The notes under the pieces: model-generated
The model's database searches: none
The model's input: the letters and a program-made list of their open reading frames with translations, nothing else
Told to the model about the DNA's origin: nothing
Position numbers and translations under genes: made by a program
Shown here: positions 32,701-57,569 of the stretch, in pieces
How positions within the stretch are numbered: position 1 is the stretch's first letter
Layout: each line of letters starts with the position of its first letter
Origin: Escherichia coli
Lineage (GTDB): Bacteria; Pseudomonadota; Gammaproteobacteria; Enterobacterales; Enterobacteriaceae
Length of the DNA stretch: 64,000 nt
Direction: 5' to 3' (one strand)
Assembly (NCBI RefSeq): GCF_009931435.1
Contig: NZ_CP043414.1

Positions 32701-32823
32701 GATGCTACAGGTTGTAACAAGTTGCTGTCCAGACGTAGCTCACAAATAGGAATACATCAAGATCTGGACATCTGATGAGCAATCCCTACAATCGCCGCGT
32801 ACATTTCATTTTCAGGATACATC

Positions 32824-35304: not shown

Positions 35305-36705
35305 ATGCCACATTCCTACGATTACGATGCCATAGTAATAGGTTCCGGCCCCGGCGGCGAAGGCGCTGCAATGGGCCTGGTTAAGCAAGGTGCGCGCGTC
35401 GCAGTTATCGAGCGTTATCAAAATGTTGGCGGCGGTTGCACCCACTGGGGCACCATCCCGTCGAAAGCTCTCCGTCACGCCGTCAGCCGCATTATAGAAT
35501 TTAATCAAAACCCACTTTACAGCGACCATTCCCGACTGCTCCGCTCTTCTTTTGCCGATATCCTTAACCATGCCGATAACGTGATTAATCAACAAACACG
35601 TATGCGTCAGGGATTTTACGAACGTAATCACTGTGAAATATTGCAGGGGAACGCTCGCTTTGTTGACGAGCATACGTTGGCGCTGGATTGCCCGGACGGC
35701 AGCGTCGAAACACTAACCGCTGAAAAATTTGTTATTGCCTGTGGTTCTCGCCCTTATCATCCAACAGATGTTGATTTCACCCATCCACGCATTTACGACA
35801 GCGACTCAATTCTTAGCATGCACCACGAACCGCGCCATGTACTTATCTATGGTGCTGGAGTGATCGGCTGTGAATATGCGTCGATCTTCCGCGGTATGGA
35901 TGTAAAAGTGGATCTGATCAACACCCGCGATCGTCTGCTGGCGTTTCTCGATCAGGAGATGTCAGATTCTCTCTCCTATCACTTCTGGAACAGTGGCGTA
36001 GTGATTCGTCACAACGAAGAGTACGAAAAGATCGAAGGCTGTGACGACGGTGTGATTATGCATCTGAAGTCGGGCAAAAAGCTGAAAGCCGACTGTCTTC
36101 TCTATGCCAACGGTCGTACCGGTAATACCGATTCGCTGGCGTTACAGAACATTGGGCTGGAAACTGACAGTCGTGGACAGCTGAAGGTCAACAGCATGTA
36201 TCAGACCGCACAGCCACACGTTTACGCGGTGGGCGACGTGATTGGTTATCCGAGCCTGGCGTCGGCGGCCTATGACCAGGGGCGCATTGCCGCGCAGGCG
36301 CTGGTGAAAGGCGAAGCCACCGCACATCTGATTGAAGATATCCCTACCGGTATTTACACCATCCCGGAAATCAGCTCTGTGGGCAAAACCGAACAGCAGC
36401 TGACCGCGATGAAAGTGCCATATGAAGTGGGCCGCGCCCAGTTCAAACATCTGGCACGCGCACAAATCGTCGGCATGAACGTGGGCACGCTGAAAATTTT
36501 GTTCCATCGGGAAACAAAAGAGATTCTGGGCATTCACTGCTTTGGCGAGCGCGCTGCCGAAATTATTCATATCGGTCAGGCGATTATGGAACAGAAAGGT
36601 GGCGGCAACACTATTGAGTACTTCGTCAACACCACCTTTAACTACCCGACGATGGCGGAAGCCTATCGGGTAGCCGCGTTAAACGGTTTAAACCGCCTGT
36701 TTTAA
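35305..36705 (+). CDS. sthA: Soluble pyridine nucleotide transhydrogenase SthA (UdhA)
   Basis: 466 aa [59 protein letters not shown]... Confidence 0.97.
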
Positions 36706-37605
36706 CACTTTATCGAAATGGCCATCCATTCTTGCGCGGATGGCCTCTGCCAGCTGCTCATAGCGGCTGCGCAGCGGTGAGCCCGGACGATAAACCAGGC
36801 CAATAGTGCGGCGTGGTTCCGGCTTAATACACGGCAAATAAACAACCCCATCGCGTTTGCGCTCCGGCGGCACAGCCAGTGCAGGCAGTAAAGTGATCCC
36901 GCTACCTGCCGCCACCATGTTGCGCAGAGTTTCCAGGCTGGTCGCGCGGAAGTGTGTATCTTCATCCGCCCCGGCTTCAAAGCAGAAACCCATTGCCTGA
37001 TCGCGCAAACAGTGACCATCTTCCAGCATCAGCAGTTTTTCCCCTGCCAGATCGGCCATCGGTACGCATTCGCGGTTCGCCCACGGGTGATCTTCATAGA
37101 TAGCCAGCAACATTGGCTCATCAAACAACGGCACTTCAATGAATGCTTCGCTCTCTTTCACCAGCGCGAGGATCACGCAATCGAGTTTGCCGCTGTCCAG
37201 TTGCGCCAGTAACTGGTGGGTCTGTGCTTCATGCAGATACATTTCCAGCTTTGGAAAGGTCTGGTGCAGCATCGGGATAATATGCGGTAACAGGTAAGGC
37301 CCAACCGTTGGAATCAAACCAATATGCAGCGGTCCGGACATCGTCTCACCCTGCTGGCTTGCCATCTCTTTAAGGACTTTCACCTCACGCAGCACGGTAC
37401 GCGCCTGATCCACCAGCAGCATTCCCGCCTGGGTGAACAACACTTTACGGCTGGTCCGCTCCAGCAACATCACGCCCAGCTCATCTTCCAGCTTACGAAT
37501 TTGCCCGCTAAGCGTCGGCTGGCTAACGTGGCAGGAGTCTGCCGCACGCCGAAAATGGCGGTGTTCAGCCAATGCCACCAGGTACTCAAGATCACGAATA
37601 TTCAT
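36688..37605 (-). CDS. oxyR: LysR-family hydrogen peroxide-responsive regulator OxyR
   Basis: Track ORF 36688..37635; homologous start [54 protein letters not shown] (305 aa); 3' end overlaps sthA convergently by 18 bp. Confidence 0.97.
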
Positions 37606-37609
37606 TATC

Positions 37610-37700
37610 CATCCTCCATCGCCACGATAGTTCATGGCGATAGGTAGAATAGCAATGAACGATTATCCCTATCAAGCATTCTGACTGATAATTGCTCACA
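37610..37700. promoter_or_regulatory. oxyR-oxyS divergent promoter region with OxyR binding site
   Basis: GATAGGTAGAATAGCAATGAACGATTATCCCTATCAAGCATT (ATAG-n7-CTAT type repeats) followed by a TGATAAT -10 box just upstream of the oxyS start. Confidence 0.7.
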
Positions 37701-37809
37701 GAAACGGAGCGGCACCTCTTTAACCCTTGAAGTCACTGCCCGTTTCGAGAGTTTCTCAACTCGAATAACTAAAGCCAACGTGAACTTTTGCGGATCTCCA
37801 GGATCCGCT
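37701..37809 (+). ncRNA. oxyS: OxyS small regulatory RNA
   Basis: GAAACGGAGCGGCACCTCTTTAACCCTTGAAGTCACTGCCCGTTTCGAGAGTTTCTCAACTCGAATAACTAAAGCCAACGTGAACTTTTGCGGATCTCCAGGATCCGC followed by a T-run; matches oxyS; divergent from oxyR. Confidence 0.9.
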
Positions 37810-37855
37810 TTTTTTTATTCTACAGGCCCACAGCAAGAGAGCCTGATAGTAACAG

Positions 37856-39139
37856 TTACTCAATCCGATCTTTGACAATAAAGAAGTAACACAGCGCCCC
37901 GGTGAATGTCACACAGGCCGCGATAACCAGCGCCAGATTAAACGAGTGCGTGGTATCCACTACCCAACCGGTTACGATCGGAGCAAAGGAAGCAAAAACA
38001 AAACTGCCAAAGTTTTGAATCCCGGCGATGGAAGCCACTTTTGTTTCTGACACCATCACCTGCACCAGTCCCCATGCAGATGTTCCCGCGAAATGCACGC
38101 AGAACAGCGCCATTGAGATAAACGCTACAGCCTGGGCTGGCGAGGAGGATTGCACGACCAGCAACGTGCCTAATGCCGACATCATCAAACCGCAGACAAT
38201 AGCCGTTTTACGCGTCTTCGCCAGGTCGTAGCCTTTTTTCGCCAGCCGATCGACAACAATACCGTTAACCCACATCCCGACCGCCGCCGCGAGGAAAGGA
38301 ATCGCCGCCACCCAACCGGTTTTCGCCAGACTGAAGCCTTGCTCGGCTTGTAAATAACCGGGTAACCACGCGATGTAGAGCCAACCGGTATAATTGACGC
38401 CAGAGAAACCTAAAATCATCCCCCAGGTTGTCCGATGCTTAAACAGCGCCAGCCACTCGCTAAATTGTAATTGTGGACGCGGTTTAACCGGCGCGGAGAG
38501 ATAGGTCCGTTCTTCGTCGGTCAGGACAAACTGCGCCCGGTTGCGATACCACGCGTACCAACAGATCCCAACCAGAATCCCCGCCACGCCGATGATGACG
38601 AACATTGCCCGCCAGCCCCATGCCAGCTGCATCAATACAAGAGCAGGAGGCGCAATAGCCTGACCGATAACGGTAGATGAGTTAAAAATCCCCAGCGCCG
38701 TGCCGCGTTCTTTTTGCGCATACCAGTCGGTGATCGACTTTACTCCCGCAGGCATAAATGGCGCTTCGCCAATACCCAGACCGATACGCATTAAAATAAA
38801 GTGGCTAAAAGAATTAACCATTCCTGTTAATGCCTGCATTAATGACCAGAATATTAAGCCTGCGCCTAAAACTATTCGTGGGCCAAAGCGGTCTAGCAAA
38901 ATACCGGAAGGGAGTTGTGAAAAACCATAAGACAGAGAAAATGCAGAAAGCAAAACGCCAAATTCTGTCGCCGATAATCCTAACTCGCCACGAATCGCTT
39001 CGCCTGCCACGCTCAATGACGAACGGTCGAGGAAATTAACGATCCCCGCCATAAATAATAAAACCAGCGTTACTGTCTGAATACGACGAATCCGTTGCGG
39101 TTTATTACCCGCAACACTGGTTGACACATCAACGTCCAT
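37856..39139 (-). CDS. MFS transporter, anion:cation symporter (ACS) family; sugar-acid (DgoT/ExuT/GudP-like) permease
   Basis: 427 aa, 12 predicted hydrophobic segments; N-terminal LLFMAGIVNFLDRSSLSVAG and GLGIGEAPFMPA motifs typical of ACS-family hexuronate/aldonate transporters. Confidence 0.8.
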   Translation of the reverse strand: MDVDVSTSVAGNKPQRIRRIQTVTLVLLFMAGIVNFLDRSSLSVAGEAIRGELGLSATEFGVLLSAFSLSYGFSQLPSGILLDRFGPRIVLGAGLIFWSLMQALTGMVNSFSHFILMRIGLGIGEAPFMPAGVKSITDWYAQKERGTALGIFNSSTVIGQAIAPPALVLMQLAWGWRAMFVIIGVAGILVGICWYAWYRNRAQFVLTDEERTYLSAPVKPRPQLQFSEWLALFKHRTTWGMILGFSGVNYTGWLYIAWLPGYLQAEQGFSLAKTGWVAAIPFLAAAVGMWVNGIVVDRLAKKGYDLAKTRKTAIVCGLMMSALGTLLVVQSSSPAQAVAFISMALFCVHFAGTSAWGLVQVMVSETKVASIAGIQNFGSFVFASFAPIVTGWVVDTTHSFNLALVIAACVTFTGALCYFFIVKDRIE

Positions 39140-39205
39140 TTTTAGCTCCTTGAGCGGAATTAATCGATTTGCTGACTATTCAGAAAATAATTAAGCGAAC
39201 CGTTA

Positions 39206-40417
39206 TTACCAGTTCCACAATGTGCCATCTTCCAGTCGTGCGACGGGGAGATACGCCGGGTCATACGGATATTTCGCCGCCAGTTTCTCATCGAAAGAAA
39301 TACCCAGCCCCGGTTCATCGCCTGGGTGCATATAACCTTCATCGAAGCGCCAGCTGTGCGGGAAGACTTCAAGCATTTGTTCGGAATAGCCCATGTACTC
39401 CTGAACACCAAAGTTTGGCACCCAGAGGTCAAAATGCAGCGCCGCCGCATGACAAACAGGCGATAAATCTGAAGGGCCATGCGAACCGGTACGTACCTGA
39501 TAAAGCGATGCAAAATCGGCAATCCGTCGCATCCCGGTAATGCCGCCTGCATGGGTAATCGTCGTGCGAATATAGTCAATCAGCTGCTCTTCGATTAACT
39601 GCTTGCAGTCCCAGATACTGTTAAACACTTCACCGACCGCAATCGGCGTCACAGTATGCTGGCGAATCAGACGAAAACATTCCTGGTTCTCGGCAGGCGT
39701 CGGATCTTCCATCCACAACAGGCGGTAATCCTCAATGCTCTTCCCAAAGCGCGCCGCTTCGATAGGAGTCAGGCGATGGTGCATGTCATGCAACAGATGT
39801 TCGTTAAAACCGAACTTATTACGCACCGCTTCAAATAACTTCGGTGTAAAATCGAGATACTTTTCTGAAGACCACAACTGCTCTTCCGGCCACAGGCCTT
39901 TGGTTGCCGGTTCATACGCCAGTCCTTTGCCCTTCGCCAGGCCATAAGTGGTTTGCATACCCGGTACACCGCACTGCACACGAATCGCCTTAAAGCCCAT
40001 CTGCTGGTGCTTTGCATAGTCTTCAAGGACTTCATCAATCGTGCGCCCGGTGGTGTGGCAATAAACCATCACGCCTTCACGAGAAGCCCCACCAAGCAGT
40101 TGATACAATGGCATATTTGCCGCTTTGGCTTTGATATCCCACAACGCCATATCAATGGCAGAAATGGCCGACATCGTGACGGGGCCACGTCGCCAGTAAG
40201 CACCTTTATAAAAGAATTGCCAGATATCTTCGATACGGCTGGCATCGCGGCCAATTAATTGTGGACAAAGATGATCTTTCAGATAAGAAGCGACCGACAA
40301 TTCGCGACCATTTAATGTGGCATCTCCCAATCCACAAATTCCGCTTGCAGTGGTTATTTTAAGCGTAACGAAATTACGTCCTGGGCAAGTAACAAAAACA
40401 TCTGCAGCAATAATTTT
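39206..40417 (-). CDS. Enolase-superfamily dehydratase, D-mannonate dehydratase (ManD/RspA-like) subgroup
   Basis: Track ORF 39206..40480; homologous start [59 protein letters not shown]...; very similar to E. coli RspA as I recall it. Confidence 0.85.
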
Positions 40418-40768
40418 CATTATTGCAATCTCCTGTGTTGTAAATAGACGCTTCAAACTTAATTTTACGCCTACTACCATACAAGAGAGAAAGGGCGATT
40501 ATTCAACCGTGATCACATTAAAAATAAAAATTTCCGCCGAGGAACAAAAATATCCTCAAATCTCACCTACACTATTAACTACCATCGTTAAAACAACGTG
40601 TTAAATAATCACATAACAAATTCCTTTAAGGAAAGGAGTTATAACAACAACAAAAGATAATCATATTTTACTTAATTCAATACGTATCGATAGGTTTATT
40701 TAAAAAGGATTTTTCGGAATGAGAGATGAAAAGAAGATACACAAGCAGGAAGAAATACGATTAATATT

Positions 40769-40904
40769 AGTTGCGGTAAGGGTAGCCGTTCCTCCCTTCC
40801 GCAACCCATTAACCGTTGAAGTCACAGACTATTTCAGGCATTTCTCAACTCAAAATAACGACAGCCAACGTGAACTTTATGGCTCTCCAGGATCTGCTTT
40901 GTTT
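40769..40904 (+). ncRNA. oxyS-like element: diverged second copy (paralog or relic) of the OxyS sRNA
   Basis: AACCGTTGAAGTCACAGACTATTTCAGGCATTTCTCAACTCAAAATAACGACAGCCAACGTGAACTTTATGGCTCTCCAGGATCTGCTTTGTTTT aligns at about 80 percent identity by eye to oxyS 37722-37817; a 5' stem-loop and a TAATAT -10-like box sit upstream; terminator stem is degenerate. Confidence 0.5.
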
Positions 40905-40908
40905 TCCA

Positions 40909-42387
40909 TCAAACAACGGAGCTCAGCGCACTGGCTACCTGTTTAAAGCGAGCAAACCGTCGCCTGAGCATGTGTGCTTTTTCTACATTCGGTTCAAGAC
41001 GAATCACGTTGAGCTGCGTAGCCTTCATGGCCTGTTTGAATCCAGAATAAGCCCCTCCTCCTACTGCCGCACACATTGCAGCCGCTCTACAACCTGACTG
41101 TTCAATATCGACAATTTCAAGAGGCATTTTGCTGGCATCACAAAACATCTGCATCCAGATTCTGGAATGCGTTGGCCCGCCAGAGAAACGAATCGTTTGC
41201 AATGACTTATCAATCTCAATAAGACGGTCCTGATGCAACAAATGAGAAAAGACAACGCCCTGATAAATAGCGTACACCAAATCTTCTCTTTTATGATGCC
41301 CACACAGCCCCAAAAATCCCCCGCTTAATGCCTCATGGTAATTCGAGCCAAACAACCACGGGAAAAAGAGAATATCATTCTGTTTCTCATACCCTCGTTC
41401 CACCCACTCATTAATCACCCGATAACTGTCAGGAAGACCCGGTAAAAATTGCTGCAAGAACCATGTTAAATTACTGGCTGATGTAGGGCTTCCCTCATGG
41501 GCGAAAAATGTACCTGGAATGCTAAATTTCCCCCATACATAGGGATAATCAGAAGGAATAATGCGATCAAAGATTCGCGTTGCAATTGACCAGGTGCCAG
41601 CAACCGCACTTAACGTTGTACTGTCATAGATGCCAGAAGTGAGCGCCGCACCAACGACATCAAAAACACCACCAAAAACAGGCGTTCCGGCGAGAAGCCC
41701 ACATTGGCTGGCTGCTTCAGATGTCACAAACCCAGCTAAATCAGCGGAGCCAATAATATCGGGAACCTTACCCGCAACTTCCTTAATCTCAAATAGGCGA
41801 AAAAGTTCAGCATCATAAGCACTGGTATATTGATTATAAAAATTACTGCCTGAAATATTGGTTTCTTCACAAGCCAGTTTGCCAGTAAGCCGTGAACGTA
41901 TGTAATCATGAACCATCAAAATGGTTCCGATGCGGCCATAATTGTCAGTCTCATGTTTTTTCAACCAATGCAATAGTGCTACAGGGTGCGATGGCCAGAG
42001 CTGTTGCAGACTACGGTGATAACTTTCGCGGTCAATTCCTTGTTCTTTCCAGCTTGCAACCAGTTGTTGTGCGCGAGAATCAGAGGAAACAATGCCGTGT
42101 CGTAAGGGCTTACCTTGCCGGTCGAGCAGGTACAAACCTTTACCATGAGCAGAAAAACTGATGCCATCAATCTGACTCGCAGTAATATTGTTATCTGACA
42201 TCGACAGTGAAATGACCTGGCACGTTACCTTCCATAACGCCTCCATGTCGCGTTCGCAAAAACCAGGACATGGGCTTAACAGAGGTAACGCCTGCGAAGA
42301 GACACCTATTTCACGTCCTTCTGCCGTATAAATTCCCGCTTTGGTTTCTGTACCACCTAAATCGACACCAATAAAATACCGCTCCAT
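40909..42387 (-). CDS. FGGY-family carbohydrate kinase (L-xylulose/3-keto-L-gulonate kinase LyxK-like)
   Basis: 492 aa MERYFIGVDLGGTETKAGIY... with FGGY N- and C-terminal signatures (HDY..., SGGPTHSRIWMQM); family assignment confident, substrate not. Confidence 0.85.
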   Translation of the reverse strand: MERYFIGVDLGGTETKAGIYTAEGREIGVSSQALPLLSPCPGFCERDMEALWKVTCQVISLSMSDNNITASQIDGISFSAHGKGLYLLDRQGKPLRHGIVSSDSRAQQLVASWKEQGIDRESYHRSLQQLWPSHPVALLHWLKKHETDNYGRIGTILMVHDYIRSRLTGKLACEETNISGSNFYNQYTSAYDAELFRLFEIKEVAGKVPDIIGSADLAGFVTSEAASQCGLLAGTPVFGGVFDVVGAALTSGIYDSTTLSAVAGTWSIATRIFDRIIPSDYPYVWGKFSIPGTFFAHEGSPTSASNLTWFLQQFLPGLPDSYRVINEWVERGYEKQNDILFFPWLFGSNYHEALSGGFLGLCGHHKREDLVYAIYQGVVFSHLLHQDRLIEIDKSLQTIRFSGGPTHSRIWMQMFCDASKMPLEIVDIEQSGCRAAAMCAAVGGGAYSGFKQAMKATQLNVIRLEPNVEKAHMLRRRFARFKQVASALSSVV

Positions 42388-42403
42388 GATCCCTCCTTAG
42401 TTT

Positions 42404-43267
42404 CTAAATATTATCCCAGCCGGCAAGGCGCATTTTCTCTTCAATCCATTGACGTGCATGAATAATTTCTAATAGAGGTTCCGTCGCTTTTTCTGTCCAC
42501 ATTTCTATCAGAAACGTTCCGCGATAATTAAGATTACGCAGGATCTTAAATAATTTAATAAAATCTACACACCCTTCACCAAAAGGAACGTCACGAAATT
42601 GCCCTGGAGAATCAGGCGTTACTGGGTACGTATCTTTAAGATGGATTGCGGCAATTCGATCAATCCCCTTTACCAGCTCACTTTCCAGTTCATTACCCCA
42701 TGCGGTCAGATTGCCAACATCCGGATAAACGGTAAACCAAGGGGAATTAATTTTTGTATCCAGGACTTTCCATTTACTAATAGAATTAATAAATGGCGTA
42801 TCCATGATCTCTACAGCACACATAACTTGTGCCGCTGCGGCCTGTTCAGCTGTCCAGGCCATCGCATCTTCAAACCAGGCGATAGTTTCTTCATTCTGCG
42901 GCTCATAATAAACGTCATAGCCTGCCAGTTGGATTGTTCGAATCCCCAAATCCTGCGCCAGGCGTAACGCCTTCAACATAATCGTACGTGCCTGCTGACG
43001 AGTATCTCTATCATGGCTACCAAATGGAAAACGCCGGTGAGCAGACAGGCACATTGTCGGAATACGGATCCCCGTTTGCTGAATGGCGCTAATAAGCTCC
43101 ATACGCTCGGTGAGCGACCAGTCCAGGCGGGCGAGTCGTTCATCATTCTCATCTACCGACATCTCAACAAAATCAAAACCGCAAGATTTAGCCAGGGCTA
43201 GTTTCTCTACCCAACTGGTATTCCTGGGTAGCGCTTTTTCATAAATACCTAACGGGTGGCGTCGCAT
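42404..43267 (-). CDS. Sugar-phosphate 3-epimerase of the xylose-isomerase-like TIM-barrel family (L-ribulose-5-phosphate 3-epimerase SgbU/UlaE-like)
   Basis: 287 aa MRRHPLGIYEKALPRNTSWVEKLALAKSCGFDFVEMSVDENDERLARLDWS...IRTIQLAGYDVYYE...HLKDT...FLIEMW; close resemblance to SgbU/UlaE as I recall them. Confidence 0.8.
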   Translation of the reverse strand: MRRHPLGIYEKALPRNTSWVEKLALAKSCGFDFVEMSVDENDERLARLDWSLTERMELISAIQQTGIRIPTMCLSAHRRFPFGSHDRDTRQQARTIMLKALRLAQDLGIRTIQLAGYDVYYEPQNEETIAWFEDAMAWTAEQAAAAQVMCAVEIMDTPFINSISKWKVLDTKINSPWFTVYPDVGNLTAWGNELESELVKGIDRIAAIHLKDTYPVTPDSPGQFRDVPFGEGCVDFIKLFKILRNLNYRGTFLIEMWTEKATEPLLEIIHARQWIEEKMRLAGWDNI

Positions 43268-44343
43268 TATTTTCCCTCACGAGTGATCAATTGTTGTTGA
43301 AAGATTTTCCGGCTCTTATTCATGTCACGCTGCAACTGCCATTTTTGTTTGATGAATTTAAATGCCAGTGCGGCGATCAATGTGATCCCCCATACCGCCA
43401 GATTGAAATGCAAACTAAGTCCCAACAGACTAAGGCCGGTAGCAATAACCTGAAGCACAAGTAAGGCACAAAAAACATGACTGACTTTACCCGCCCCACC
43501 GAATGGATCTGTGCCTCCCAATACAATTGCAAGAACCGTCAAGAGCAGATAGGAATCGCCATAGCCCATACGCGCCGAATTAAATCGCGCGAGCATAATA
43601 AGACCTGCTAATACACACAACATGCTGGATATAGCATATATAGCAATTAATACGCGGTCGGTGCGAATACCGCTAAACCATGTGGCGTTAATATTACTGC
43701 CACACATATAAATCGTTTTTCCCGTACGGGTTTTGCCGAGGAACAGAGCTAAAGCAACGGTGGTGACGATAAAAATTATCATCGGTACTGGGATCCCCAT
43801 GATAACTTCAGACCCAATACTGCGGACTACTGGTGGCATACCACTTAAAGCTGCCCCCTTAGTCAGGTAAATACCGATACCACTAATAATGGTCATGCTA
43901 CCCAATGTGACCAAAATAGGGTGAGCGCCTATATGAGAAATAATTGACCCAGTAATAGCTCCAATGATGATGGCAATAAGCATCGCCCCGACAATAGCCA
44001 GGAAGAGCCAAAACAACTGACTACCTGTAGATGCATCTGCGGGTACATATTGAATCAACAGCCAGGCCATAAACAGGCTGGTCAGATTCGCAGTACCGAT
44101 GATTGCCAGATTGAGCCCCCCGCTCAACATGGGTATAAACATCGCAAACGTGAGCAACCCAAGCTCTGGCAATTGAAATGCAATGCTCAGAAAAGTATTG
44201 CCGGTGAAAAAACGCCCCGGCATTACCAGACTAAATAACACCACCGCAATAAAACATATTGATAATAAGCCTGAACTGGTACCATCTAGTGGAAAAAATA
44301 TCCGCTTGTTCATTTCGATCCTCCCGTTAGACGAAACCAACAT
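43267..44343 (-). CDS. ABC transporter permease (CUT2, RbsC/LsrD-like)
   Basis: 358 aa polytopic membrane protein; stop/start overlaps neighbours within the ABC operon. Confidence 0.8.
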   Translation of the reverse strand: MLVSSNGRIEMNKRIFFPLDGTSSGLLSICFIAVVLFSLVMPGRFFTGNTFLSIAFQLPELGLLTFAMFIPMLSGGLNLAIIGTANLTSLFMAWLLIQYVPADASTGSQLFWLFLAIVGAMLIAIIIGAITGSIISHIGAHPILVTLGSMTIISGIGIYLTKGAALSGMPPVVRSIGSEVIMGIPVPMIIFIVTTVALALFLGKTRTGKTIYMCGSNINATWFSGIRTDRVLIAIYAISSMLCVLAGLIMLARFNSARMGYGDSYLLLTVLAIVLGGTDPFGGAGKVSHVFCALLVLQVIATGLSLLGLSLHFNLAVWGITLIAALAFKFIKQKWQLQRDMNKSRKIFQQQLITREGK

Positions 44344-45319
44344 CAGTTTCTTTACGTTTTTTGTAATGGGTCACACAAATCGCCGAGACAATAACCACTC
44401 CAATAACGATATTGACGAAATAACTCGAGATGCCAATCAAATTAAGGCCGTTTTTAAGAATACCGATAAGAAATACGCCCATAAGCGTACCAATGACCGT
44501 ACCACGTCCGCCTGATAAACTGGCACCGCCCAATACCGCTGCAGCCAGCACATCCAACTCTCCGCCAACCAATGCATTCGGCACAACTTCACTCATACGA
44601 TAAGCTTGCAGCATTCCACCAATTGCTGCAGCGGCACCAAGATAACCATAAGCAAACAGATAAATTAGCGACACCCGAATCCCAATACGTCTTGCTGATT
44701 CGGTATTCCCTCCCACGGCATAAAGCTGACGCCCAATATGGGTTTTGTTCATTATCATCCACGTCAGAAATGCCATTCCCAGCATAACCACTAACGGTAA
44801 TCCGATCTGGTAATCTTCTCCGCCAAATTCAAAACTCAGGAAAGAACGCTGCGTAATCCACCAATCCGGTAAATCGTAAATACTGTGGCCATTAGTCAAC
44901 CACATCAACATACCGAACAGTAGCGACTGCATACTAATCGTAATGATGATGGAAACGACATTAAGGTAATAAATAAGAATAGCGTTTATCAAACCAAAAA
45001 TGATGCCAAGAAAAACAGCAAACACCAGACAGAAAAATGGATTTGATAGCGTTTCATTAAGCAGTAACGACGCCACAACATATTGCACAACCGAAGCTAC
45101 TGCTGCAAAAGAGATATCAATTCCGCCAGTAACCAATACGACAAATAATCCGAGGGCGAAAATACCCGTTACGGCATAACTTTCCGAGAGATCGAGCAAG
45201 TTCTGTATTGATAAAAACTCATCGCTCATGATGGAAAAAAATACCAGCATGAGAACAATGACCCATCCTAACCAAGCTTCGACTGAACGAGGAAACCGCA
45301 GCCGCATAAAGCTAACCAT
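44327..45319 (-). CDS. ABC transporter permease (CUT2, RbsC/LsrC-like)
   Basis: 330 aa polytopic membrane protein with GGIDISFAAV and GGxSLxGGRGT motifs typical of ribose-type permeases. Confidence 0.8.
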   Translation of the reverse strand: MVSFMRLRFPRSVEAWLGWVIVLMLVFFSIMSDEFLSIQNLLDLSESYAVTGIFALGLFVVLVTGGIDISFAAVASVVQYVVASLLLNETLSNPFFCLVFAVFLGIIFGLINAILIYYLNVVSIIITISMQSLLFGMLMWLTNGHSIYDLPDWWITQRSFLSFEFGGEDYQIGLPLVVMLGMAFLTWMIMNKTHIGRQLYAVGGNTESARRIGIRVSLIYLFAYGYLGAAAAIGGMLQAYRMSEVVPNALVGGELDVLAAAVLGGASLSGGRGTVIGTLMGVFLIGILKNGLNLIGISSYFVNIVIGVVIVSAICVTHYKKRKETDVGFV

Positions 45320-46829
45320 TAATCACCTCCGCCAACTGCTGCTCGGTATAATTCGAAGGCAACAGCTCATTAATAATCTTTCCGCGCTTCATATGAAAAA
45401 TACGATCGCAGTTATAATAAGCTTCTGGTGCTTCATCAGTAATTAATATCACTGAAATACCCACACCTGAAAGCCGATGAATAAGCTGGTAAATACTATC
45501 TTTTGCGCCAATATCTACACCTACCGTTGGCGCATCCAGAATTAAAACCTTAGGTCGTGTTAAAATCCATTTAGCCAGGACAACCTTTTGTTGATTGCCG
45601 CCAGATAGCGTTGAAAGTGGATTATTTGGATCGGTGACTTTAATATCCAAATCCTGGATCCACTCCTTGACTAAGGTTTCTTTTCGATTTTCATCAATAA
45701 ACCCCGATGCCGTCTTTAAACGATCCAGAATCGAGAGCACCATATTATCGCTGATAGATTGGGGTAATACGGCCCCCAGTGTCAGGCGATCTTCTGAAAC
45801 ATATGCTATTCCCAGTTTTACCGCATGCGTGTTGTCTTTAATTGTAACGGGCTTACCTTCCAGATAAATATCACCACTATCTGGTCGAGTAATACCGAAA
45901 AGACTCAATGCTAATTCAGTTCTCCCCGCACCAAGTAAACCACACAATCCCAGAACCTCGCCCTGGTGTAGTTTTAGAGAAACATCTTCAAATTGCCCTT
46001 TTCTGCATAATTTGTTTAGTTCAAGGACTACTTTGCCTTCAACGCTATTTGGTAGCTTCTTCTGGTGGACTATAGTTTTTCCGGTCATTAACTCAGTAAT
46101 ATCGCCCGGAGAAAGTTGATTGGCAGCCCACGTTCCAATTATCTCTCCATCACGGATGACCGTAATCCGATCTGAAATTTCCTTAACTTCATCAAGGCGG
46201 TGGCTAACAAAAACTACGGTAATATTTTTATCGCGTAAGTAATTCACTGTGCGTAGTAATTGATTAACTTCTGTACGCGTCAATGATGCCGTTGGCTCGT
46301 CCATGATGACTAACCGGGCATCGGCAATCAGAGCCCGGCAAATCGCGACCTGTTGGCGTTGTGCAATCGGCAAATGTTGTACTAACGCATCAGGATCGAG
46401 ATTGAATTGCAGCTCCTGAATTATTTTCTGCGATACATCTCGAAGTTGTTTTTTTCTGTGCAGCCCTAAATATCCCTTCAGGTTGTATTCAAAAGCGATA
46501 TTTTCAGCAACAGAAAGATTTGGGAATAAAGAAAGATCCTGATATATCACCTGAATACCCAGTTCCCGAGCTTTATCAGGAGAAAGACGAGTCCAGGACT
46601 TACCATCTATAATAATTTCACTTCCCGAATCAGGGACATAAACACCACACAGCGTTTTGATCAGAGTACTTTTACCACACCCATTCGCACCAGCAAGACA
46701 ATGAACCTCACCTTTATTTAAGGTAAGATTGATATTCTTTAGAGCCCTATGGCCACCGAAACTTTTCGTTAGTGACCTTAGCGTCACTAATGGTTGCTCC
46801 GCATTCTTCTCTATAATATGAGGCATCAT
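45312..46829 (-). CDS. Sugar ABC transporter ATP-binding protein with duplicated ABC domains (RbsA/LsrA-like)
   Basis: 505 aa; first Walker A GANGCGKST, LSGGNQQK-type signature, second degenerate P-loop GLLGAGRTE as in CUT2 ATPases. Confidence 0.85.
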   Translation of the reverse strand: MMPHIIEKNAEQPLVTLRSLTKSFGGHRALKNINLTLNKGEVHCLAGANGCGKSTLIKTLCGVYVPDSGSEIIIDGKSWTRLSPDKARELGIQVIYQDLSLFPNLSVAENIAFEYNLKGYLGLHRKKQLRDVSQKIIQELQFNLDPDALVQHLPIAQRQQVAICRALIADARLVIMDEPTASLTRTEVNQLLRTVNYLRDKNITVVFVSHRLDEVKEISDRITVIRDGEIIGTWAANQLSPGDITELMTGKTIVHQKKLPNSVEGKVVLELNKLCRKGQFEDVSLKLHQGEVLGLCGLLGAGRTELALSLFGITRPDSGDIYLEGKPVTIKDNTHAVKLGIAYVSEDRLTLGAVLPQSISDNMVLSILDRLKTASGFIDENRKETLVKEWIQDLDIKVTDPNNPLSTLSGGNQQKVVLAKWILTRPKVLILDAPTVGVDIGAKDSIYQLIHRLSGVGISVILITDEAPEAYYNCDRIFHMKRGKIINELLPSNYTEQQLAEVING

Positions 46830-46892
46830 AATATTCCTGAATACGACTAAAGGAATTCCGGGTCAAATTTGACCCGGTGATTTACGGTAAAA

Positions 46893-47897
46893 TTACAAGC
46901 CTAGCTTCACTAAACGTCGTGTATTTTCAAGATCGAGCTTTTCTGGATTATCACTATAAATAGTGTTGTTATTAACCTTGATCTCGCCCATATCACCGAT
47001 TTTTACACCGTCTTTAATAGGTTCACCGTTCATCATTGCCGTCGCAACCTGGACAAAAACCTTACCCGCAATCATAGGGTTTGAAATATATCCCCCATCA
47101 ATGGCACCTTTTTCGAGTAGCTTAATTCCCTGACCTGGAGTGAAGGTTCCAAAAACGCAAATTGCATCATTTTTCTTCCGCTTATCAATAGCACGCCCCG
47201 CACCAATTGGTCCTTGTGAACCAAATGACATAATGCCTTTAAGATCTTTATATTTAGACATTAAATCGTTCGTCGTGCGCATTGAATCATCCACCGACTC
47301 AGCAACACCAAAACGATCTTCAACCAACGTCATATTTGGATAATGTTCTTTTTGATAGGCAATCGCGGCATTGGCCCAGTCATTTACCAAAGGCACAGTC
47401 AGACTGCCGACAAACATGGCGTATTTACCTTCTTCGCCCATACACTTCGCCATATCTTTCATATGATTGGCACCCATTGTCTGGGTATTTAACAACTCAA
47501 AATCCCAATCTGCATTTTTTTGATCTGGTGATTCGTGGGTAATAACTTTAATACCGGCTTCTTGTGCACGCTTAAGTACAGGTTCAAGAACCTTTGCATC
47601 GTTAGGAACAACACCAATAACATCCACTTTTCGTGCAATTAAATCTTCAATCGCCCGAACCTGTTCAGCTGGATCTGCCGTTGTAGGGCCGACCTGCCAT
47701 GCATCAACCCCCAATAGTTTTCCTTCATTTTTAATGCCTTGTTCCATCACATTAAACCAGGGAATTCCACCGACTTTTACTACTACCCCCATCGTAAAAG
47801 GTTTATTCGCTTTTTGTGATGTTACAGTCTGATCAGCCCATGCAGCAGTGGAAGATAATACGGTAGCAATAAGGCAGGGTAAGATTAATTTTTTCAT
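46893..47897 (-). CDS. Periplasmic sugar-binding protein (PBP type I, LsrB/RbsB-like) with signal peptide
   Basis: 334 aa MKKLILPCLIATVLSSTAAWA (signal peptide) followed by a two-lobe sugar-binding fold pattern. Confidence 0.8.
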   Translation of the reverse strand: MKKLILPCLIATVLSSTAAWADQTVTSQKANKPFTMGVVVKVGGIPWFNVMEQGIKNEGKLLGVDAWQVGPTTADPAEQVRAIEDLIARKVDVIGVVPNDAKVLEPVLKRAQEAGIKVITHESPDQKNADWDFELLNTQTMGANHMKDMAKCMGEEGKYAMFVGSLTVPLVNDWANAAIAYQKEHYPNMTLVEDRFGVAESVDDSMRTTNDLMSKYKDLKGIMSFGSQGPIGAGRAIDKRKKNDAICVFGTFTPGQGIKLLEKGAIDGGYISNPMIAGKVFVQVATAMMNGEPIKDGVKIGDMGEIKVNNNTIYSDNPEKLDLENTRRLVKLGL

Positions 47898-48019
47898 CGT
47901 AATTTCCTTAAGAAATAGTTCAGGTGTCAGGAAAACTCGATATAATATCGACCTGACTATTTATATAATTTATAATCCCTTAGGCATTGATTAATAATTT
48001 AGACAATAAATAACGCCTA

Positions 48020-48829
48020 TTATTTATCAACCTCCACAATGTTTAATTGTGGAAATTGTGTTCGATACCGAGTATCTGTACAAACATTAGTCACCAGAAT
48101 ATCGATTTCATCCAGCGTGCATATTTTACTAAATGCATACTGTTCAAACTTAGTGGAGTCGACCAGCAATATTTTTTGTCCTGACACCTGAAGCATCACC
48201 TGTTTAAGTCTGGCATTAATTTCACTGCCATCGCGGACACCATTCCCCAGATTCAACCCCTGGCATGAAAAGAAAAAACTGTTGATTTGAAAATTTCGGA
48301 TCGCACTCTCTGCAACCGGGCCATGAAAATCATCATGTCGCTCAGAATACTCACCACCGATACCAATAATTCGAACTCGATCACGGCAAGCTAACGCCTG
48401 AATTATCCGTAATGAATTTGTAACTACGGTAACATCTATATCGGGAATTTGACGAGCTAAAAACCAACAAGTACTACTGTTATCCATTAAAATACAATCA
48501 CCAGGGTGAATAAATTGCAATGCGGCCTTCGCAATTCTGGCTTTTATATCAGGATTTTCTTCAGTCCGTTTACGGAATGATTCCGCACGATCGATACTAT
48601 TATCTTGCCACGCATTATCGGCGAGCATAACCGGAGCGCTATCAGATGAATCCAGAGCGACCGCGCCACCAAAGCTACGGATTAACTTTTTGTTGCGCTC
48701 CAGTACCGTTAAATCCCGACGAATTGTCTCAGGAGACGCTTTAAATAATCGTGATAATTCAGTTACCCGCACAGCACCTTGTTTTTGTACATGTGCGCAT
48801 ATCATTTTATGGCGCTCTGCCTGCAACAT
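48020..48829 (-). CDS. DeoR/GlpR-family transcriptional regulator
   Basis: 269 aa; N-terminal HTH (VTELSRLFKASPETIRRDLTVLE) and C-terminal DeoR sugar-phosphate-binding domain; first gene of the minus-strand operon. Confidence 0.85.
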   Translation of the reverse strand: MLQAERHKMICAHVQKQGAVRVTELSRLFKASPETIRRDLTVLERNKKLIRSFGGAVALDSSDSAPVMLADNAWQDNSIDRAESFRKRTEENPDIKARIAKAALQFIHPGDCILMDNSSTCWFLARQIPDIDVTVVTNSLRIIQALACRDRVRIIGIGGEYSERHDDFHGPVAESAIRNFQINSFFFSCQGLNLGNGVRDGSEINARLKQVMLQVSGQKILLVDSTKFEQYAFSKICTLDEIDILVTNVCTDTRYRTQFPQLNIVEVDK

Positions 48830-49282
48830 AGTATCGGTCCGTTATTATCAAATTAGCATGCTTATATAATTAACTGTTCCCTCATAAAATAAAGTGATAG
48901 GAATCAAGATTCATTTTATAATTATAATCGCAAACAGGAATGGTGATCTTTATCACAAATTAAATTGAGAACACTCTACTATTTGACATTACTTTGAGAT
49001 ATCGGTCACTAAATAAGTCTTATTCTGCCATCTAACGAAAAATTTAAATACAAAAACAAAAATAATCGGGCATAGCAATCGCTTCCATTCATGACCGAAT
49101 ACGCCCGAATAAAACCGTTTATACCCACTTATCCTCTTTCGTTGCCTTCTTACATGCCTTGAATATTTTACATTTCTTATATTCAGCGTAATTTAGGAAA
49201 CATAATTTATGAGCAAAAAAAGCCCAAACTCAAAAGTTAAAGTTTATTTATATAATACATACAGATTATCGTGGAGTTAAAA

Positions 49283-49975
49283 ATGGATATGCTAAAGGAA
49301 AAAGTTCTTGCTGCGAATTTATCATTACCCCTTCATCAGTTAGTGACGTTTACCTGGGGAAATGTTAGTGGTGTTGATCGCGAAAAAGGTGTCATGGTTA
49401 TTAAACCTTCTGGGGTCGAATACAGCCAAATGGGCATTGCAGATATGGTGGTAGTGGATTTACAAAGTGGTGAAGTTATTGATGGACACAGGAAACCCTC
49501 TTCAGACACCGATACTCATCTGGCGCTATACCGTGCTTTCCCGGATATTGGTGGTATCGTTCATACCCATTCCCGACACGCCACAATATGGGCTCAGGCC
49601 GGAAAAGATCTCACGGCCTTTGGGACAACCCACGCTGATTATTTCTACGGCACTATCCCCTGTACACGCCCCATGAAGGATGACGAAATTAATGGACAAT
49701 ATGAATATGAAACGGGGCGAGTGATTATTGAAACGTTCAGACAACGAGAAATATCTCCCGCTGACATTCCGGCTGTTTTAGTAAACAGTCATGGCCCCTT
49801 TGCCTGGGGAACTGATCCCGCGAACGCCGTGCATAACGCCGTTGTACTTGAAGAAATTGCCTATATGAATCTCTTTACACAACAACTACAGCCCCATCTT
49901 ACGGCTATTCAACAGCCTCTACTGGATAAGCATTTTTTACGCAAGCATGGTGCCAATGCTTATTACGGGCAGTAA
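49283..49975 (+). CDS. L-ribulose-5-phosphate 4-epimerase (class II aldolase fold; AraD/SgbE/UlaF paralog)
   Basis: Track ORF 49271..49975; about three-quarters identical by eye to AraD ([31 protein letters not shown]...[14 protein letters not shown]...HGPFAWG...[18 protein letters not shown]); start chosen by alignment, alternative ATGs at 49271 and 49289. Confidence 0.85.
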
Positions 49976-50024
49976 CCCTCTTAGCATGGCCTGGCGTTTT
50001 GCCAAGCCATAAATCGCCTAAGAC

Positions 50025-51398
50025 TTACTCCAACCGCGCCTGCGCAAAAGCAATCGCCTGCGCCACCTGCTGCGGTGAGACGCCGCCTTTTGCCGCACGC
50101 TTGTCGAGGCACGATTGCAGCGACAGAATCGGATAGACATCTTCGCCAATCACCTGACTGAATTTCTGCAACTCACTGAGCGGCAGATCTTCCAGCGGTT
50201 TGCCCTGACGAATGGCTTCCACCACCGCTTCACCAACAATATGGTGCGCCTCGCGGAACGGCACACCTTTCGCCACCAGGTAATCCGCCAGTTCAGTGGC
50301 GTTCGCATACCCCTGCTGCGCCGCTTCCTGGCAACGTGGGCGTTTCACCTGAATGCCGTCCAGCACCAGCGCCGCCATATGCAGGCAGTCCAGCCAGGTA
50401 TCGAGCGCGTCGAATAAGCCCTCTTTGTCTTCCTGCATATCTTTGTTGTAAGCCAGCGGCAAACCTTTCAGCGTCATCATCATGCCAGTCAACGCGCCCT
50501 GAACACGACCGCATTTACCCCGAATCAGCTCCAGCGCATCCGGGTTTTTCTTCTGCGGCATTAATGATGAACCGGAAGTCACGCGATCAGAAAGCTCCAC
50601 AAAACCCGCTTCGCCGGTGTTAAAGAAAATCAGATCTTCGGCAAAACGCGACAAATGCACCATACCGATAGCGGCGGCAGAAAGCAGTTCCAGCACGTGG
50701 TCGCGGTCAGAAACGCTGTCGAGACTGTTACGGGTCGCCGAGGCAAAGCCCAGCCAGCCTGCTAACTGTTCACGGTCGATTTCATAAGCCGTTCCCGCCA
50801 GTGCGCCACAGCCTAACGGGCTGACATCCAGACGCTTAAGCGCATCCTGCAAACGACTTTCATCACGCGCCAGCATCTCAACATAGGCCAGGCACCAGTG
50901 CGCGAACGTCACCGGCTGGGCGCGTTGCAGGTGAGTGTAACCAGGCATTACCGCGTCCTGATTATTCTGCGCGGTCTCGACCAGAGCGGATTGTAACTGT
51001 CGGTTAGCCGTCAGTAACTCGCTAACGGTATCTTTGCACCACAGTTTCAGGTCAGTCGCTACCTGATCATTACGGCTACGCCCGGTGTGCAGTTTTTTGC
51101 CTAACTGGCCCACTTTGTCGATCAGTTTGCCTTCTACCCAGCTATGGATATCTTCAGCGTCGCTTTCAAGAATTTGTTGTGGTCTGGCGCGAACATCTTC
51201 CAGCAGCACATTGAGCGCCTCTTCCAGTTGCACCTGTTCTTCTGCGGTTAACACGCCTACCGTTACCAGCGCTTTGGACCAGGCCACAGAGCCAACAATA
51301 TCCTGCTCCGCCAGACGGTAATCAAAGCGCAGTGAGTCGTTGAATTGTTTAAACCGTTGATCTGCTGCCTGGGTAAAACGCCCGCCCCAAAGTGCCAT
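50025..51398 (-). CDS. argH: Argininosuccinate lyase
   Basis: 457 aa [45 protein letters not shown]... Confidence 0.97.
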
Positions 51399-51458
51399 AA
51401 CTCTGTTTCCTTATTTTGAAATTCAATGCCAGAAAGCTACGTCTCCGGCCAACAAAAC

Positions 51459-52235
51459 TTAAGCTAAAATCCGCGTACCCATCGGCATACCGTTAAACAG
51501 TGCCGGAAGCTGTTCCGCATGACGCCAGGAAGCGATATCTACCGGGCGGCCCAGCGTGCGCGCAGCATCCAGCGCCGCGTTCACTTTCACTATCATGCCG
51601 TCAGTAATAATGCCCTGCTCAATCAGTTGTTCTGCTTTCGCGGCGGTCATTTCGGCAATACGTTGCCCTTTGCCGTCGAGAATACCGCTGACATCAGAGA
51701 GCAAAATCAGATCTGCGCCCAGCGTTGCCGCCAGCGCCGTCGCCGCCTGGTCGGCATTGACGTTCATCAGTTGCCCTTCGTCTGTTACGCCAATGGAGCT
51801 GACCACCGGCAGATAACCGTTCTCCAGCAATGTGTTGATAAGCTTAGGCGAACCTGGCTGCGCCAGTCCAACATGGCCTAACTCTTCATCGAGCTGGGTC
51901 ACTTTTACGCTGTCGCCGTCACCAAGAAACAGGCCTACGCCAGCAATCTGATGTTTCTTCGCCCACGCCAGCAAGGTTTTATTTGCCGTTCCCGCCAGCG
52001 CCCCGGTGATAATGTCTATCTGATCCGCAGGCGTCACCCGCAGGCCATTTTTCTTTTTCACCGGCAGATTCAGCCCTTTCATTAGTTCATCCACCACGCA
52101 GCCGCCGCCGTGAACAATCACCAGCGGACGCTGATGTGACTCACGATAATTCACCAGTGCGCTAAACAGACGTTCCAGCGCCTCTTCGCTATCCAACAGT
52201 ACGCCGCCCAGTTTGATAATTAATGGATTCATCAT
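51459..52235 (-). CDS. argB: Acetylglutamate kinase
   Basis: Track ORF 51459..52313; homologous start [45 protein letters not shown] (258 aa). Confidence 0.95.
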
Positions 52236-52242
52236 TGCACCC

Positions 52243-53247
52243 TTAAATAAGAGACTGCGTTTCCGCATAGCCGAAACGAATATTGGCGCACTGTACCGCT
52301 TGTGCCGCCGCACCTTTCAGTAAGTTGTCTTCGGTCGCCACAATAATCAGATGCTCGCCCTGAACTGCAAACCCGATATCGCAAAACGGCAGCCCGACGA
52401 CATTTTTCAGCGCCGGAACGCCTTTGTCATACAACCGTACCAACGGTTTATGGGCATACGCCTGCTGCAACGCTTGCGCGACTTGCGCCTGGTTTACACC
52501 ATGCTTCAGGCGGCAGGTAATGGTTTCGAGAATGCCACGAGGGAAATTGCCCAGATGCGGGGTGAAAATCACGTCAGCACCGAGATGCGTGGCGATCTCC
52601 GGTTGATGGCGATGGGTAAAGACACCGTATGGTTGCAGGCTAACTTCGCAAAAGCTGTTTGAAATTGCCGCTTTACGTCCTGCACCGCTCACACCGCTGG
52701 TGGCGTTGATGACCGGCCACTGATTGAGGTCAAGGAGATCGGCGTCAATCAACGGTTTCAGCGCCAACTGCGCTGCCGTCGGATAACAGCCCGGCACCGC
52801 AATCAAGTTCGCTTCTTTTAATTTATTGCCGCACCACTCCGCCAGCCCATAAGCCGCCTGATCAAGCAGTTCCGGGTATTGATGGGTAAAGCCGTAATAT
52901 TTTTCATAGAAGGCGGCGTCATTAACGCGAAACGCGCCGGAAAGGTCGAACACCACACAGCCTGCTTCGAGAAATTGCGGCGCTAAATCGTGGCTAACTT
53001 CATGGGCGGTGGCGAGAAACACCACGTCCACCCCTGGGCTAAACTCGCTGATATCCGACATCGGCTGCAACGGCAGATCAACGACGCCTTTGAGCTGCGG
53101 ATGCAAATCGGAGATTAACTTTCCCGCATCATTGCTTTGCGCTGAGACAGTCAAAGCGGTTATGTTCATATGCGGATGGCGATTTACATAGGTCACTAGC
53201 TCTGCGCCAGCATAACCGCTGGCACCCACAATCAGCGTATTCAACAT
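52243..53247 (-). CDS. argC: N-acetyl-gamma-glutamyl-phosphate reductase
   Basis: 334 aa [54 protein letters not shown]... Confidence 0.97.
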
Positions 53248-53329
53248 CGGGGCTATTCACCTTCTTATGTCTGGTTGCCTGGTTAAACGTAAAACATTCA
53301 CCTTACGGCTGGTGGGTTTTATTACGCTC

Positions 53330-53380
53330 AACGTTAGTGTATTTTTATTCACAATTAATGCATGAATATTGATACTATCA
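53330..53380. promoter_or_regulatory. argE / argCBH divergent control region with ARG-box-like operators
   Basis: AT-rich imperfect palindromes TGTATTTTTATTCACA and TGCATGAATATTGATA between the divergent argC and argE starts. Confidence 0.5.
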
Positions 53381-53400
53381 TGACCAGAGGTGTGTCAACA

Positions 53401-54552: not shown

Positions 54553-54556
54553 AACG

Positions 54557-57555: not shown

Positions 57556-57569
57556 TCTTCCCCCCTCCT

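Follow-up and report, generated by a model that had tools for sequence, protein, structure and literature searches.

The DNA analysed here, referred to as the window, is a stretch of 64,000 nucleotides from Escherichia coli (assembly GCF_009931435.1, contig NZ_CP043414.1), and the feature under study is the accessory DNA between the small RNA (sRNA) gene oxyS and the arginine biosynthesis gene argH. This oxyS-argH region combines two accessory catabolic modules, stacked in a recombination-prone slot. Module a consists of a transporter of the major facilitator superfamily (MFS) and a ManD dehydratase, while module b consists of an ATP-binding cassette (ABC) importer, a kinase, two epimerases and a regulator. 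The best explanation of the locus as a whole is that both modules travel by homologous recombination, that module b would serve the uptake and catabolism of L-xylulose, and that a decayed second copy of oxyS at the junction of the two modules, termed psi-oxyS, is a relic; we estimate the probability of this explanation at roughly 60%.

The interval between the two core genes runs from 37817 to 50023 and measures 12,207 bp, as compared with a 53-bp spacer in K-12 and B strains. In an alignment with E. coli B ATCC 11303 the homology ends at 37816 and picks up again at 50024, and in K-12 MG1655 the genes argH (ending at 4158223), oxyS (starting at 4158278) and oxyR are adjacent. The original prediction, made from the sequence alone, was right about this adjacency and had postulated about 12 kb of accessory DNA between oxyS and argH, which is confirmed by its absence from K-12 and by the break in homology. 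Its list of gene contents was also right, being supported by NCBIfam and by the RefSeq annotation of a 99.8% identical copy; the eleven open reading frames (ORFs) it had counted come down to 10 genes when ORF calls, NCBIfam and this annotation are taken together. The left border is formed by the functional oxyS. Its product (37701-37809) scores 133.4 bits with the Rfam model RF00035, for which the gathering score is 75, and folds with -33.5 kcal/mol (z = -2.68) into a structure with an intact terminator hairpin, which the terminator scan finds as well and whose T-run ends at 37816. The right border is a hairpin spacer (GGCCTGGC..GCCAAGCC) that can be aligned both to the terminator hairpin of argH in K-12 and to the hairpin at the same position in Citrobacter and Atlantibacter. 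No repeat joins these outer borders.

There is no integrase, transposase or insertion sequence (IS) ORF in the interval, as all 10 genes belong to transport, enzyme or regulator families. No further ORF of at least 80 aa in the interval matches an integrase, recombinase or transposase family, and no tRNA was found in 36000-52000. The earlier statement that integrase, transposase and tRNA are lacking therefore stands, but the accompanying statement that no direct repeats are visible at the borders is incomplete, as oxyS at the left border is repeated inside the island at a distance of 3,089 nt. The view that the island is metabolic rather than a classic integrase- or tRNA-linked element is supported by the gene families and the missing tRNA. 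Of the features of a classical genomic island, the region has an atypical base composition (module b GC content 0.43 vs 0.52) and a patchy distribution, and it lacks an integrase, recombinase or transposase as well as insertion at a tRNA or tmRNA gene with att repeats.

What had been taken for a single island is two nested modules, which differ in base composition and in frequency. Module a (37856-40420) has a GC content of 0.50, and module b (40909-49975), with eight genes over 9.1 kb, has one of 0.43, a value 9 points lower than that of the genome; elsewhere in the window it is 0.52. The presence/absence mapping suggested in the original prediction was carried out over 5,426 complete E. coli genomes, nearly all of which fall into three slot states (empty, a, a+b). 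The empty K-12-type junction occurs in 3,553 of them (65.5%). Module a occurs in 1,859-1,867 (~34%), including 55989, UTI89 and ABU 83972, and module b in only 146 (2.7%), including sequence type 38 (ST38); at least 80% of the whole a+b stretch is found in 145. Within E. coli, module b is always chromosomal, in one copy and at a single site, and a search for a plasmid copy found none. Its carriers form two sequence classes, with 9 genomes at 99% identity or more to the window and 137 at ~98.6%. The latter class includes 28Eco12, an ST38 strain (PMC6963479). All genes of the island are intact in the window and the ratio of nonsynonymous to synonymous polymorphism (pN/pS) in module b is 0.13, meaning that its genes are under purifying selection. 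A few individual records deviate (NZ_OZ501674.1, NZ_LR890714.1 and NZ_CP086627.1): in two carriers the match is interrupted by ~776 bp of inserted sequence, which in one of them cuts through the kinase gene, and one ST38-like genome is without the first 460 bp of module b and matches module a with rspA only, which suggests a deletion.

Table 1. Features of the oxyS-argH region, with positions in the window.
Feature	Position	Strand	Basis or remark
oxyS sRNA and terminator, functional	37701..37816	+	left border; left copy of direct repeat
MFS transporter, anionic sugar (D-galactonate transporter-like) family	37856..39139	-	TIGR00893; RefSeq MFS transporter
ManD-subgroup enolase-superfamily dehydratase, RspA paralogue	39206..40420	-	NF043051
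Spacer upstream of ManD gene, holds left recombination breakpoint	40421..40775	.	identity drop vs R32_14_1F
psi-oxyS, decayed second oxyS copy	40776..40905	+	right copy of direct repeat around module a
FGGY kinase, predicted L-xylulokinase (LyxK-like)	40909..42387	-	42.5% to K-12 LyxK
L-xylulose-5-P / L-ribulose-5-P 3-epimerase (SgbU/UlaE family)	42404..43267	-	TIGR00542
ABC permease (CUT2-type)	43267..44313	-	AlsC, RbsC and AraH models below cut-offs; RefSeq agrees
Second ABC permease (CUT2-type)	44327..45319	-	RbsC and AraH models below cut-offs; RefSeq agrees
ABC ATPase, two fused nucleotide-binding domains	45312..46829	-	XylG, AraG and RbsA models 425-452 bits, below cut-offs
GC-rich hairpin between binding-protein and ATPase genes	46858..46877	-	terminator-like in scan: 8 pairs, 6 of them G-C
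Periplasmic substrate-binding protein, AauA paralogue	46893..47897	-	48.9% to AauA
DeoR/GlpR-family regulator, first gene of minus-strand operon	48020..48829	-	FucR, SrlR and AgaR models 154-161 bits
Divergent control region of regulator and 4-epimerase genes	48830..49282	.	candidate CRP-like sites and repeats
L-ribulose-5-P 4-epimerase (SgbE/AraD family), divergently transcribed	49283..49975	+	TIGR00760
Hairpin spacer between 4-epimerase gene and argH	49976..50024	.	right border
argH	50025-51398	-	divergent allele that came in along with module b; recombination tract ends at 51470

The junction between the two modules is marked by the extra sRNA-like element of the original prediction, which is real. 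It is an OxyS-like sequence that directly adjoins the stop codon of the kinase gene and shares three collinear blocks (D1, D3 and D5) of 76-92% identity with oxyS, each 3,089-3,090 nt apart, so that the two copies form an imperfect direct repeat which brackets module a only. Despite being collinear with OxyS along its whole length, psi-oxyS is not a member of the RF00035 family: it reaches only 30.1 bits (E 3e-4), below the gathering score, with non-canonical pairs in all stems and a broken terminator, and an OxyR-dependent promoter is missing. It folds less well than shuffled sequence (z = +1.34), without a terminator hairpin, and upstream of it there is neither a sigma-70-like promoter in a consensus scan nor homology to the OxyR-site promoter. 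Between the two island variants psi-oxyS has ~10 differences in ~140 nt (~7%, counted by hand), compared with a synonymous divergence of 0.037 in module b. It is no nearer to the oxyS of Atlantibacter or Citrobacter than to that of E. coli. The lost terminator, the poor folding, the missing OxyR-site promoter and the divergence between variants show that psi-oxyS has decayed, and we read it as a relic and not a working sRNA. A second OxyS-like sRNA with altered targets might have been expected from the ~125 nt of recognisable OxyS that have been kept, including the conserved single-stranded AGCCAACGUGAACUUU stretch, and from a new 12-bp hairpin which, as read from the sequence, is possible at the 5' end; with broken stems, a fold below that of shuffles, no promoter and a variant difference at or above the synonymous rate, such a function is highly improbable. 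As a relic, psi-oxyS at the junction would be what a homologous recombination event has left behind.

Recombination can be followed in the flanks of module b. The complete genome closest to the right flank of the window is R32_14_1F (98.9%), which has module a only. It is nearly identical to the window across the MFS and ManD genes, and in the spacer upstream of ManD the two are identical up to ~40540, after which identity drops to ~85% and then to ~68%. The match past ~40540 is still significant, with a score of 28 as against 10 ± 1.5 in shuffles, 0 of 1000 of which reach it. At the other end there are 78 differences over 50000-51499 (~5%, in argH) and none from ~51500 onward. These breaks in identity at ~40540 and ~51500 delimit a tract of ~40540-51470, comprising module b and a foreign argH allele, that has been exchanged by homologous recombination. 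The best complete E. coli genome is 98.1% identical to the argH of the window, and the next best include several carriers of a near-identical island. In 24A16CRGN010 an island that is 99.8-100% identical to that of the window lies between flanks of 93.6-99% identity. Synonymous divergence between the window and an ST38-type copy is 0.037 in module b, 0.07-0.10 in module a and 0.18 in argH. Both modules, though without mobility genes of their own, would thus be able to enter and spread between lineages by recombination through conserved flanks, with oxyR/oxyS or ManD on one side and argH on the other. Exchange by way of conserved flanks would also explain why mobility genes are absent, and the same slot is used in two other genera.

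This was seen when relatives of module b were sought with its binding protein in one genome per bacterial species. In Atlantibacter sp. RC6 and in four genomes of the Citrobacter amalonaticus group, the same eight genes stand in the same order in the space from argH to oxyR/oxyS, and in three of these five genomes a bona fide oxyS adjoins the kinase gene. The module is located elsewhere, has the GC content of its host and is without conserved neighbours in Yersinia (including Y. pestis), Serratia, Erwinia, Pantoea, Affinibrenneria and Providencia. Atlantibacter and Citrobacter as donors of module b are not supported, as their copies are only ~75% identical in DNA. In these two genera the module is flanked by two copies of the argH terminator hairpin (~25 nt; AAAAAGCCYGGC..GCCAGGC), which resembles the duplication of a target (~7810-7930 and ~16990-17100 in loci L005-L007, L034 and L004), while the window keeps the hairpin only on the side of the 4-epimerase gene and argH. 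As to the Y. pestis module (L013), it is longer by ~860 bases between the genes for the binding protein and the ATPase (11002-11865) and by ~220 before the 3-epimerase gene (15396-15617), which may reflect IS insertion or decay.

The duplicated hairpin, together with the atypical GC content of module b and the imperfect direct repeat, is what could be expected of a mobile genomic island of the classical kind, or of the remnant of a transposon, whose mobility genes have been lost. This origin can be given next to no weight, as the region contains no integrase, transposase, IS ORF or tRNA, the repeat is the neighbouring sRNA gene rather than an att site or a terminal inverted repeat, no plasmid copy and only one chromosomal site exist within E. 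coli, and the boundaries are recombination breakpoints within homologous sequence. A different history would have the full a+b arrangement, or module a with psi-oxyS, as the ancestral state in Escherichia, from which the K-12 and module-a-only states arose by deletion. Module b in the same slot in Citrobacter and Atlantibacter fits such an ancestor, recombination of oxyS with psi-oxyS would remove module a cleanly, and the spacers of module-a-only genomes share a homology with the window that reaches into the first ~10 nt of psi-oxyS, perhaps with a marginal remnant of its 3' end (p about 0.03). It is nonetheless improbable, because the empty spacer of K-12 keeps the Citrobacter-type terminator hairpin with no scar and because module b, apart from its GC content, is confined to 2.7% of genomes, has a synonymous divergence between lineages of one fifth of that of the adjacent argH and lies on a tract with sharp identity breaks as its bounds. 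Separately, the module-a-only genomes have a palindrome resembling repetitive extragenic palindromic (REP) elements (GCCTGATG..GGCGTAAACGCCTTATCCGCCTAC) between the ManD spacer and argH (L002 5118-5318, L059 17880-18000), which is not in the window.

For module a, the dehydratase is the better defined of the two genes. It passes the cut-off of the NCBIfam ManD equivalog NF043051 (730.6 bits vs 550, over residues 1-404), and the protein is ~90% identical, judged by eye from printed alignments, to RspA of CFT073 (PDB 4IL2) and to a Pectobacterium ManD (4E4F). The structure 4IL2 is not the island ManD itself, as the alignment shows it to be the RspA paralogue; the gene is ~81% identical in DNA to rspA. 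Within the RspA/ManD subgroup, to which it is akin, the dehydratase stands apart as a second paralogue which is encoded at another locus and whose partner is an MFS transporter and not the RspB dehydrogenase. The transporter reaches 275 bits with TIGR00893, below the curated cut-off of 395, and is thus assigned to its family only; its pN/pS against the ST38-type copy is 0.02. Taken together, the two genes point to the uptake of a hexonate, probably one such as D-mannonate, which would probably be dehydrated to 2-keto-3-deoxy-gluconate for the core KdgK/Eda route.

The pathway proposed for module b is built on its three enzymes, whose best matches among the K-12 paralogues tested are LyxK, SgbU and SgbE. 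The 3-epimerase meets the equivalog TIGR00542 with 458.5 bits (cut-off 272) over residues 2-283 of 287 and is 70% identical to SgbU and 54% to UlaE. The 4-epimerase meets TIGR00760 with 414.1 bits (cut-off 389.1) and shares 72% identity with SgbE, 69% with AraD and 59% with UlaF. With two equivalog epimerases the end of the pathway is fixed, leading from L-xylulose-5-P by way of L-ribulose-5-P to D-xylulose-5-P. The kinase is 42.5% identical to K-12 LyxK (489 of 492 residues, 412 bits) and has no blastp match to AraB; its hidden Markov model scores with XylB, LsrK, GlpK, FucK and RhaB are far weaker than the LyxK match. The LyxK isofunctional group is restricted to few Gammaproteobacteria (PMC3245297). 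In the proposed route, the Aau-family ABC importer would take up a neutral ketopentose, most likely L-xylulose, which the LyxK-like kinase would convert to L-xylulose-5-P. The SgbU-like 3-epimerase would then yield L-ribulose-5-P and the SgbE/AraD-like 4-epimerase D-xylulose-5-P, which enters the pentose phosphate pathway. Direct import of L-xylulose is the most economical assumption, since L-xylulose is the C4 epimer of D-ribulose and no reductase, decarboxylase, isomerase or dehydrogenase is present in the module anywhere; that module b imports L-xylulose directly and processes it by LyxK-, SgbU- and SgbE-type reactions is slightly better than an even bet, and most of what is left goes to other substrates that lead to the same phosphates. 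Where the original prediction could vouch for no functional assignment, the genes thus allow one to be proposed, namely a Sgb-type L-xylulose route combined with an Aau-like ABC importer.

The substrate-binding protein gives further indications as to the ligand. Among solved structures, its best relatives are 3D02, a structural-genomics protein from Klebsiella, and AauA (9I1M), with the latter being 48.9% identical over 272 ungapped residues. AauA is the binding protein of enterohaemorrhagic E. coli (EHEC) that binds alpha-D-ribulofuranose with a dissociation constant of 2 uM through contacts by Lys37, Trp43, Glu118, His167, Glu196 and Ser223, of which His167 bonds the C2 and C4 hydroxyls of the ligand (PMC12307932). 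Five of these six contacts are kept in the binding protein of the window (K41, W47, E122, E200 and S227), while His167 corresponds to Val171, and this Val is invariant in 13 of 13 module copies examined. In all relatives outside the module the His is kept, that is in AauA, in a 62%-identical group from Rahnella, Ewingella and Hafnia, in a planctomycete, in Pantoea ananatis and in Blautia. The binding protein therefore appears to share the fold and the type of pocket of AauA, probably with a different specificity, and the gene context argues against D-ribulose as its ligand. L-Xylulose is an intermediate of the mammalian glucuronate-xylulose pathway and is excreted in urine. One could go further and speculate, although this is doubtful, that module b is a dedicated high-affinity L-xylulose system in which a single His-to-Val change has shifted an importer family for D-ribulose towards the C4 epimer, and that its carriage would let the pandemic ST38 clone and a few divergent Escherichia lineages use host-derived L-xylulose, in parallel to D-ribulose in the colonisation by EHEC and Citrobacter rodentium. 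In Rahnella ecdela (L026 9000-17200), the genes for a binding protein of 62% identity, its ABC components and a DeoR regulator lie beside those for an AlsE-like D-allulose-6-P 3-epimerase, an AlsK-like kinase and a ribokinase, and this locus has the appearance of a sister system that handles another ketose.

Several points weigh against this account of the locus. The kinase passes no NCBIfam equivalog cut-off, its best score being 200 bits with XylB as against 380, and 42.5% identity to LyxK is no guarantee of the same kinase substrate. LyxK is also said to act on 3-keto-L-gulonate, and the host enzymes SgbH or UlaD could then supply the decarboxylase for this compound. Free L-xylulose is rare, and we know of no gut or environmental source of it that has been shown. 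No published experiment was found for any of the copies of module b, so that its substrate is one which we infer. The low DNA identity (only ~75%) of the nearest copies in other genera also counts here, as does the order of events, in which a (with psi-oxyS) may have come first and b followed, or b may have been lost from an a+b ancestor. In the case of module a, Wichelecki and colleagues reportedly found in 2014 that ManDs this close to RspA are of low efficiency and have uncertain physiological roles.

Module b might have another substrate which converges on the same phosphates. Candidates are L-ribulose, a sugar derived from L-lyxose or a pentitol and converted by the host, D-ribulose as with Aau, and 3-keto-L-gulonate or 2,3-diketo-L-gulonate with a decarboxylase from host SgbH or UlaD, the genes for which are present in most E. 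coli (shown for K-12). The closest characterised binding protein does bind D-ribulose (PMC12307932), and the family is versatile, as the Rahnella locus with its AlsE-like, AlsK-like and ribokinase genes illustrates. Such a substrate is nevertheless unlikely, for four reasons. The L-xylulose-5-P/L-ribulose-5-P 3-epimerase is kept in every module copy across more than six genera and would be pointless for L- or D-ribulose; among the conserved neighbours of the module there is no dehydrogenase, isomerase, reductase or decarboxylase; the pocket glutamates E122 and E200, which would disfavour a carboxylate ligand, are kept; and the change from His to Val coincides exactly with the presence of the Sgb-type enzymes. 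No conserved accessory gene that could indicate a pentitol or an aldose as substrate adjoins the module in Yersinia, Serratia, Erwinia, Pantoea or Providencia. Direct import of L-xylulose thus remains the preferred assignment.

If L-xylulose is indeed imported, module b would function in the manner of the LyxK/SgbU/SgbE branch of yiaK-S, with an importer of the Aau/Rbl type supplying it, without being a member of either system. It shares with the yiaK-S operon the same three reactions in the same order. It differs from it in having an ABC importer where yiaK-S uses the tripartite ATP-independent periplasmic (TRAP) transporter YiaMNO, in being without the YiaK reductase, YiaL and the SgbH decarboxylase, in its DeoR-type regulator as opposed to the IclR-type PlaR/YiaJ, and in a gene order with the 4-epimerase gene divergent. 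Aau of EHEC and Rbl of C. rodentium are ABC uptake systems for D-ribulose (Cottam et al. 2025, PMC12307932). Like them, module b has a CUT2-type ABC importer with a family-2 periplasmic binding protein, and like Rbl it couples the importer to a dedicated FGGY kinase. Whereas Aau relies on AraB and Rbl has a D-ribulokinase and a KpsF-like isomerase, the downstream enzymes of module b are L-series epimerases, and its chromosomal site and regulator are different as well; the His167 of AauA is a Val in every copy of module b examined. With the Ula regulon for L-ascorbate, module b has in common the last two reactions and a repressor of the DeoR family (UlaE 54%, UlaF 59%, UlaR 28.5% identity), but it has no phosphotransferase system (PTS) transporter, lactonase or decarboxylase and is nearer to the Sgb than to the Ula paralogues. 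Literature searches on the island, on ManD/RspA in CFT073, on L-xylulose together with ABC transporters and on oxyR-argH islands found no paper describing the locus, giving it a name or proving a substrate for it.

Regulation of module b can be approached through the region between its divergent transcription units. The matches of the regulator to the FucR, SrlR and AgaR models are below their cut-offs. In the control region there are two CRP-like sites, at 48942-48957 (9/10 consensus bases) and at 48995-49010 (8/10), as well as TTCGG(G/T)C repeats with 10-bp spacing at 49080-49119 and an inverted copy at 49063-49073. Both the sites and the repeats recur in the aligned regions from Atlantibacter to Providencia. 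The motifs suggest catabolite control and a DeoR-type operator, so that the DeoR-family protein would probably repress module b at the direct repeats and cAMP-CRP would probably activate it. The GC-rich hairpin between the binding-protein and ATPase genes might allow differential expression within the operon.

Module b thereby gives a locus that had not been studied a concrete candidate function in L-xylulose uptake and catabolism, and it offers a second candidate ketopentose niche beside the recently described D-ribulose systems, along with the idea that a change of one residue (His167 to Val) sets the specificity. The locus also marks ST38 and a few divergent Escherichia lineages. ST38 is a globally spreading lineage which produces OXA-48/244 carbapenemases. 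In a wider sense, the region is an example of a metabolic island without mobility genes which would spread by homologous recombination via a conserved slot, with a decayed copy of the neighbouring sRNA gene as the scar. Current understanding is not overturned by this, and the island will not surprise a specialist.

The strain background is itself divergent. In non-ribosomal genes the window (e.g. 1000-6000 and 50000-62000) shares 93-96% identity with E. coli B and with a genome of the ST38 type, and over 50025-58000 no complete E. coli genome exceeds 98.9% identity. The background is that of a divergent Escherichia lineage and may represent a strain similar to the cryptic clades. The btuB allele (30785-32150) is highly divergent, with no megablast match in three E. 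coli comparison genomes; only 371 of the 5,426 genomes cover at least 80% of this stretch, and the best match listed (90.8%) comes from a soil isolate. It may be an imported allele or that of a diversifying receptor. Two ordinary features complete the picture: a cobalamin riboswitch upstream of btuB (32521-32710), and a match to the REP-derived Rfam family naRNA4 at 54559-54652 (59.7 vs a gathering score of 59.5).

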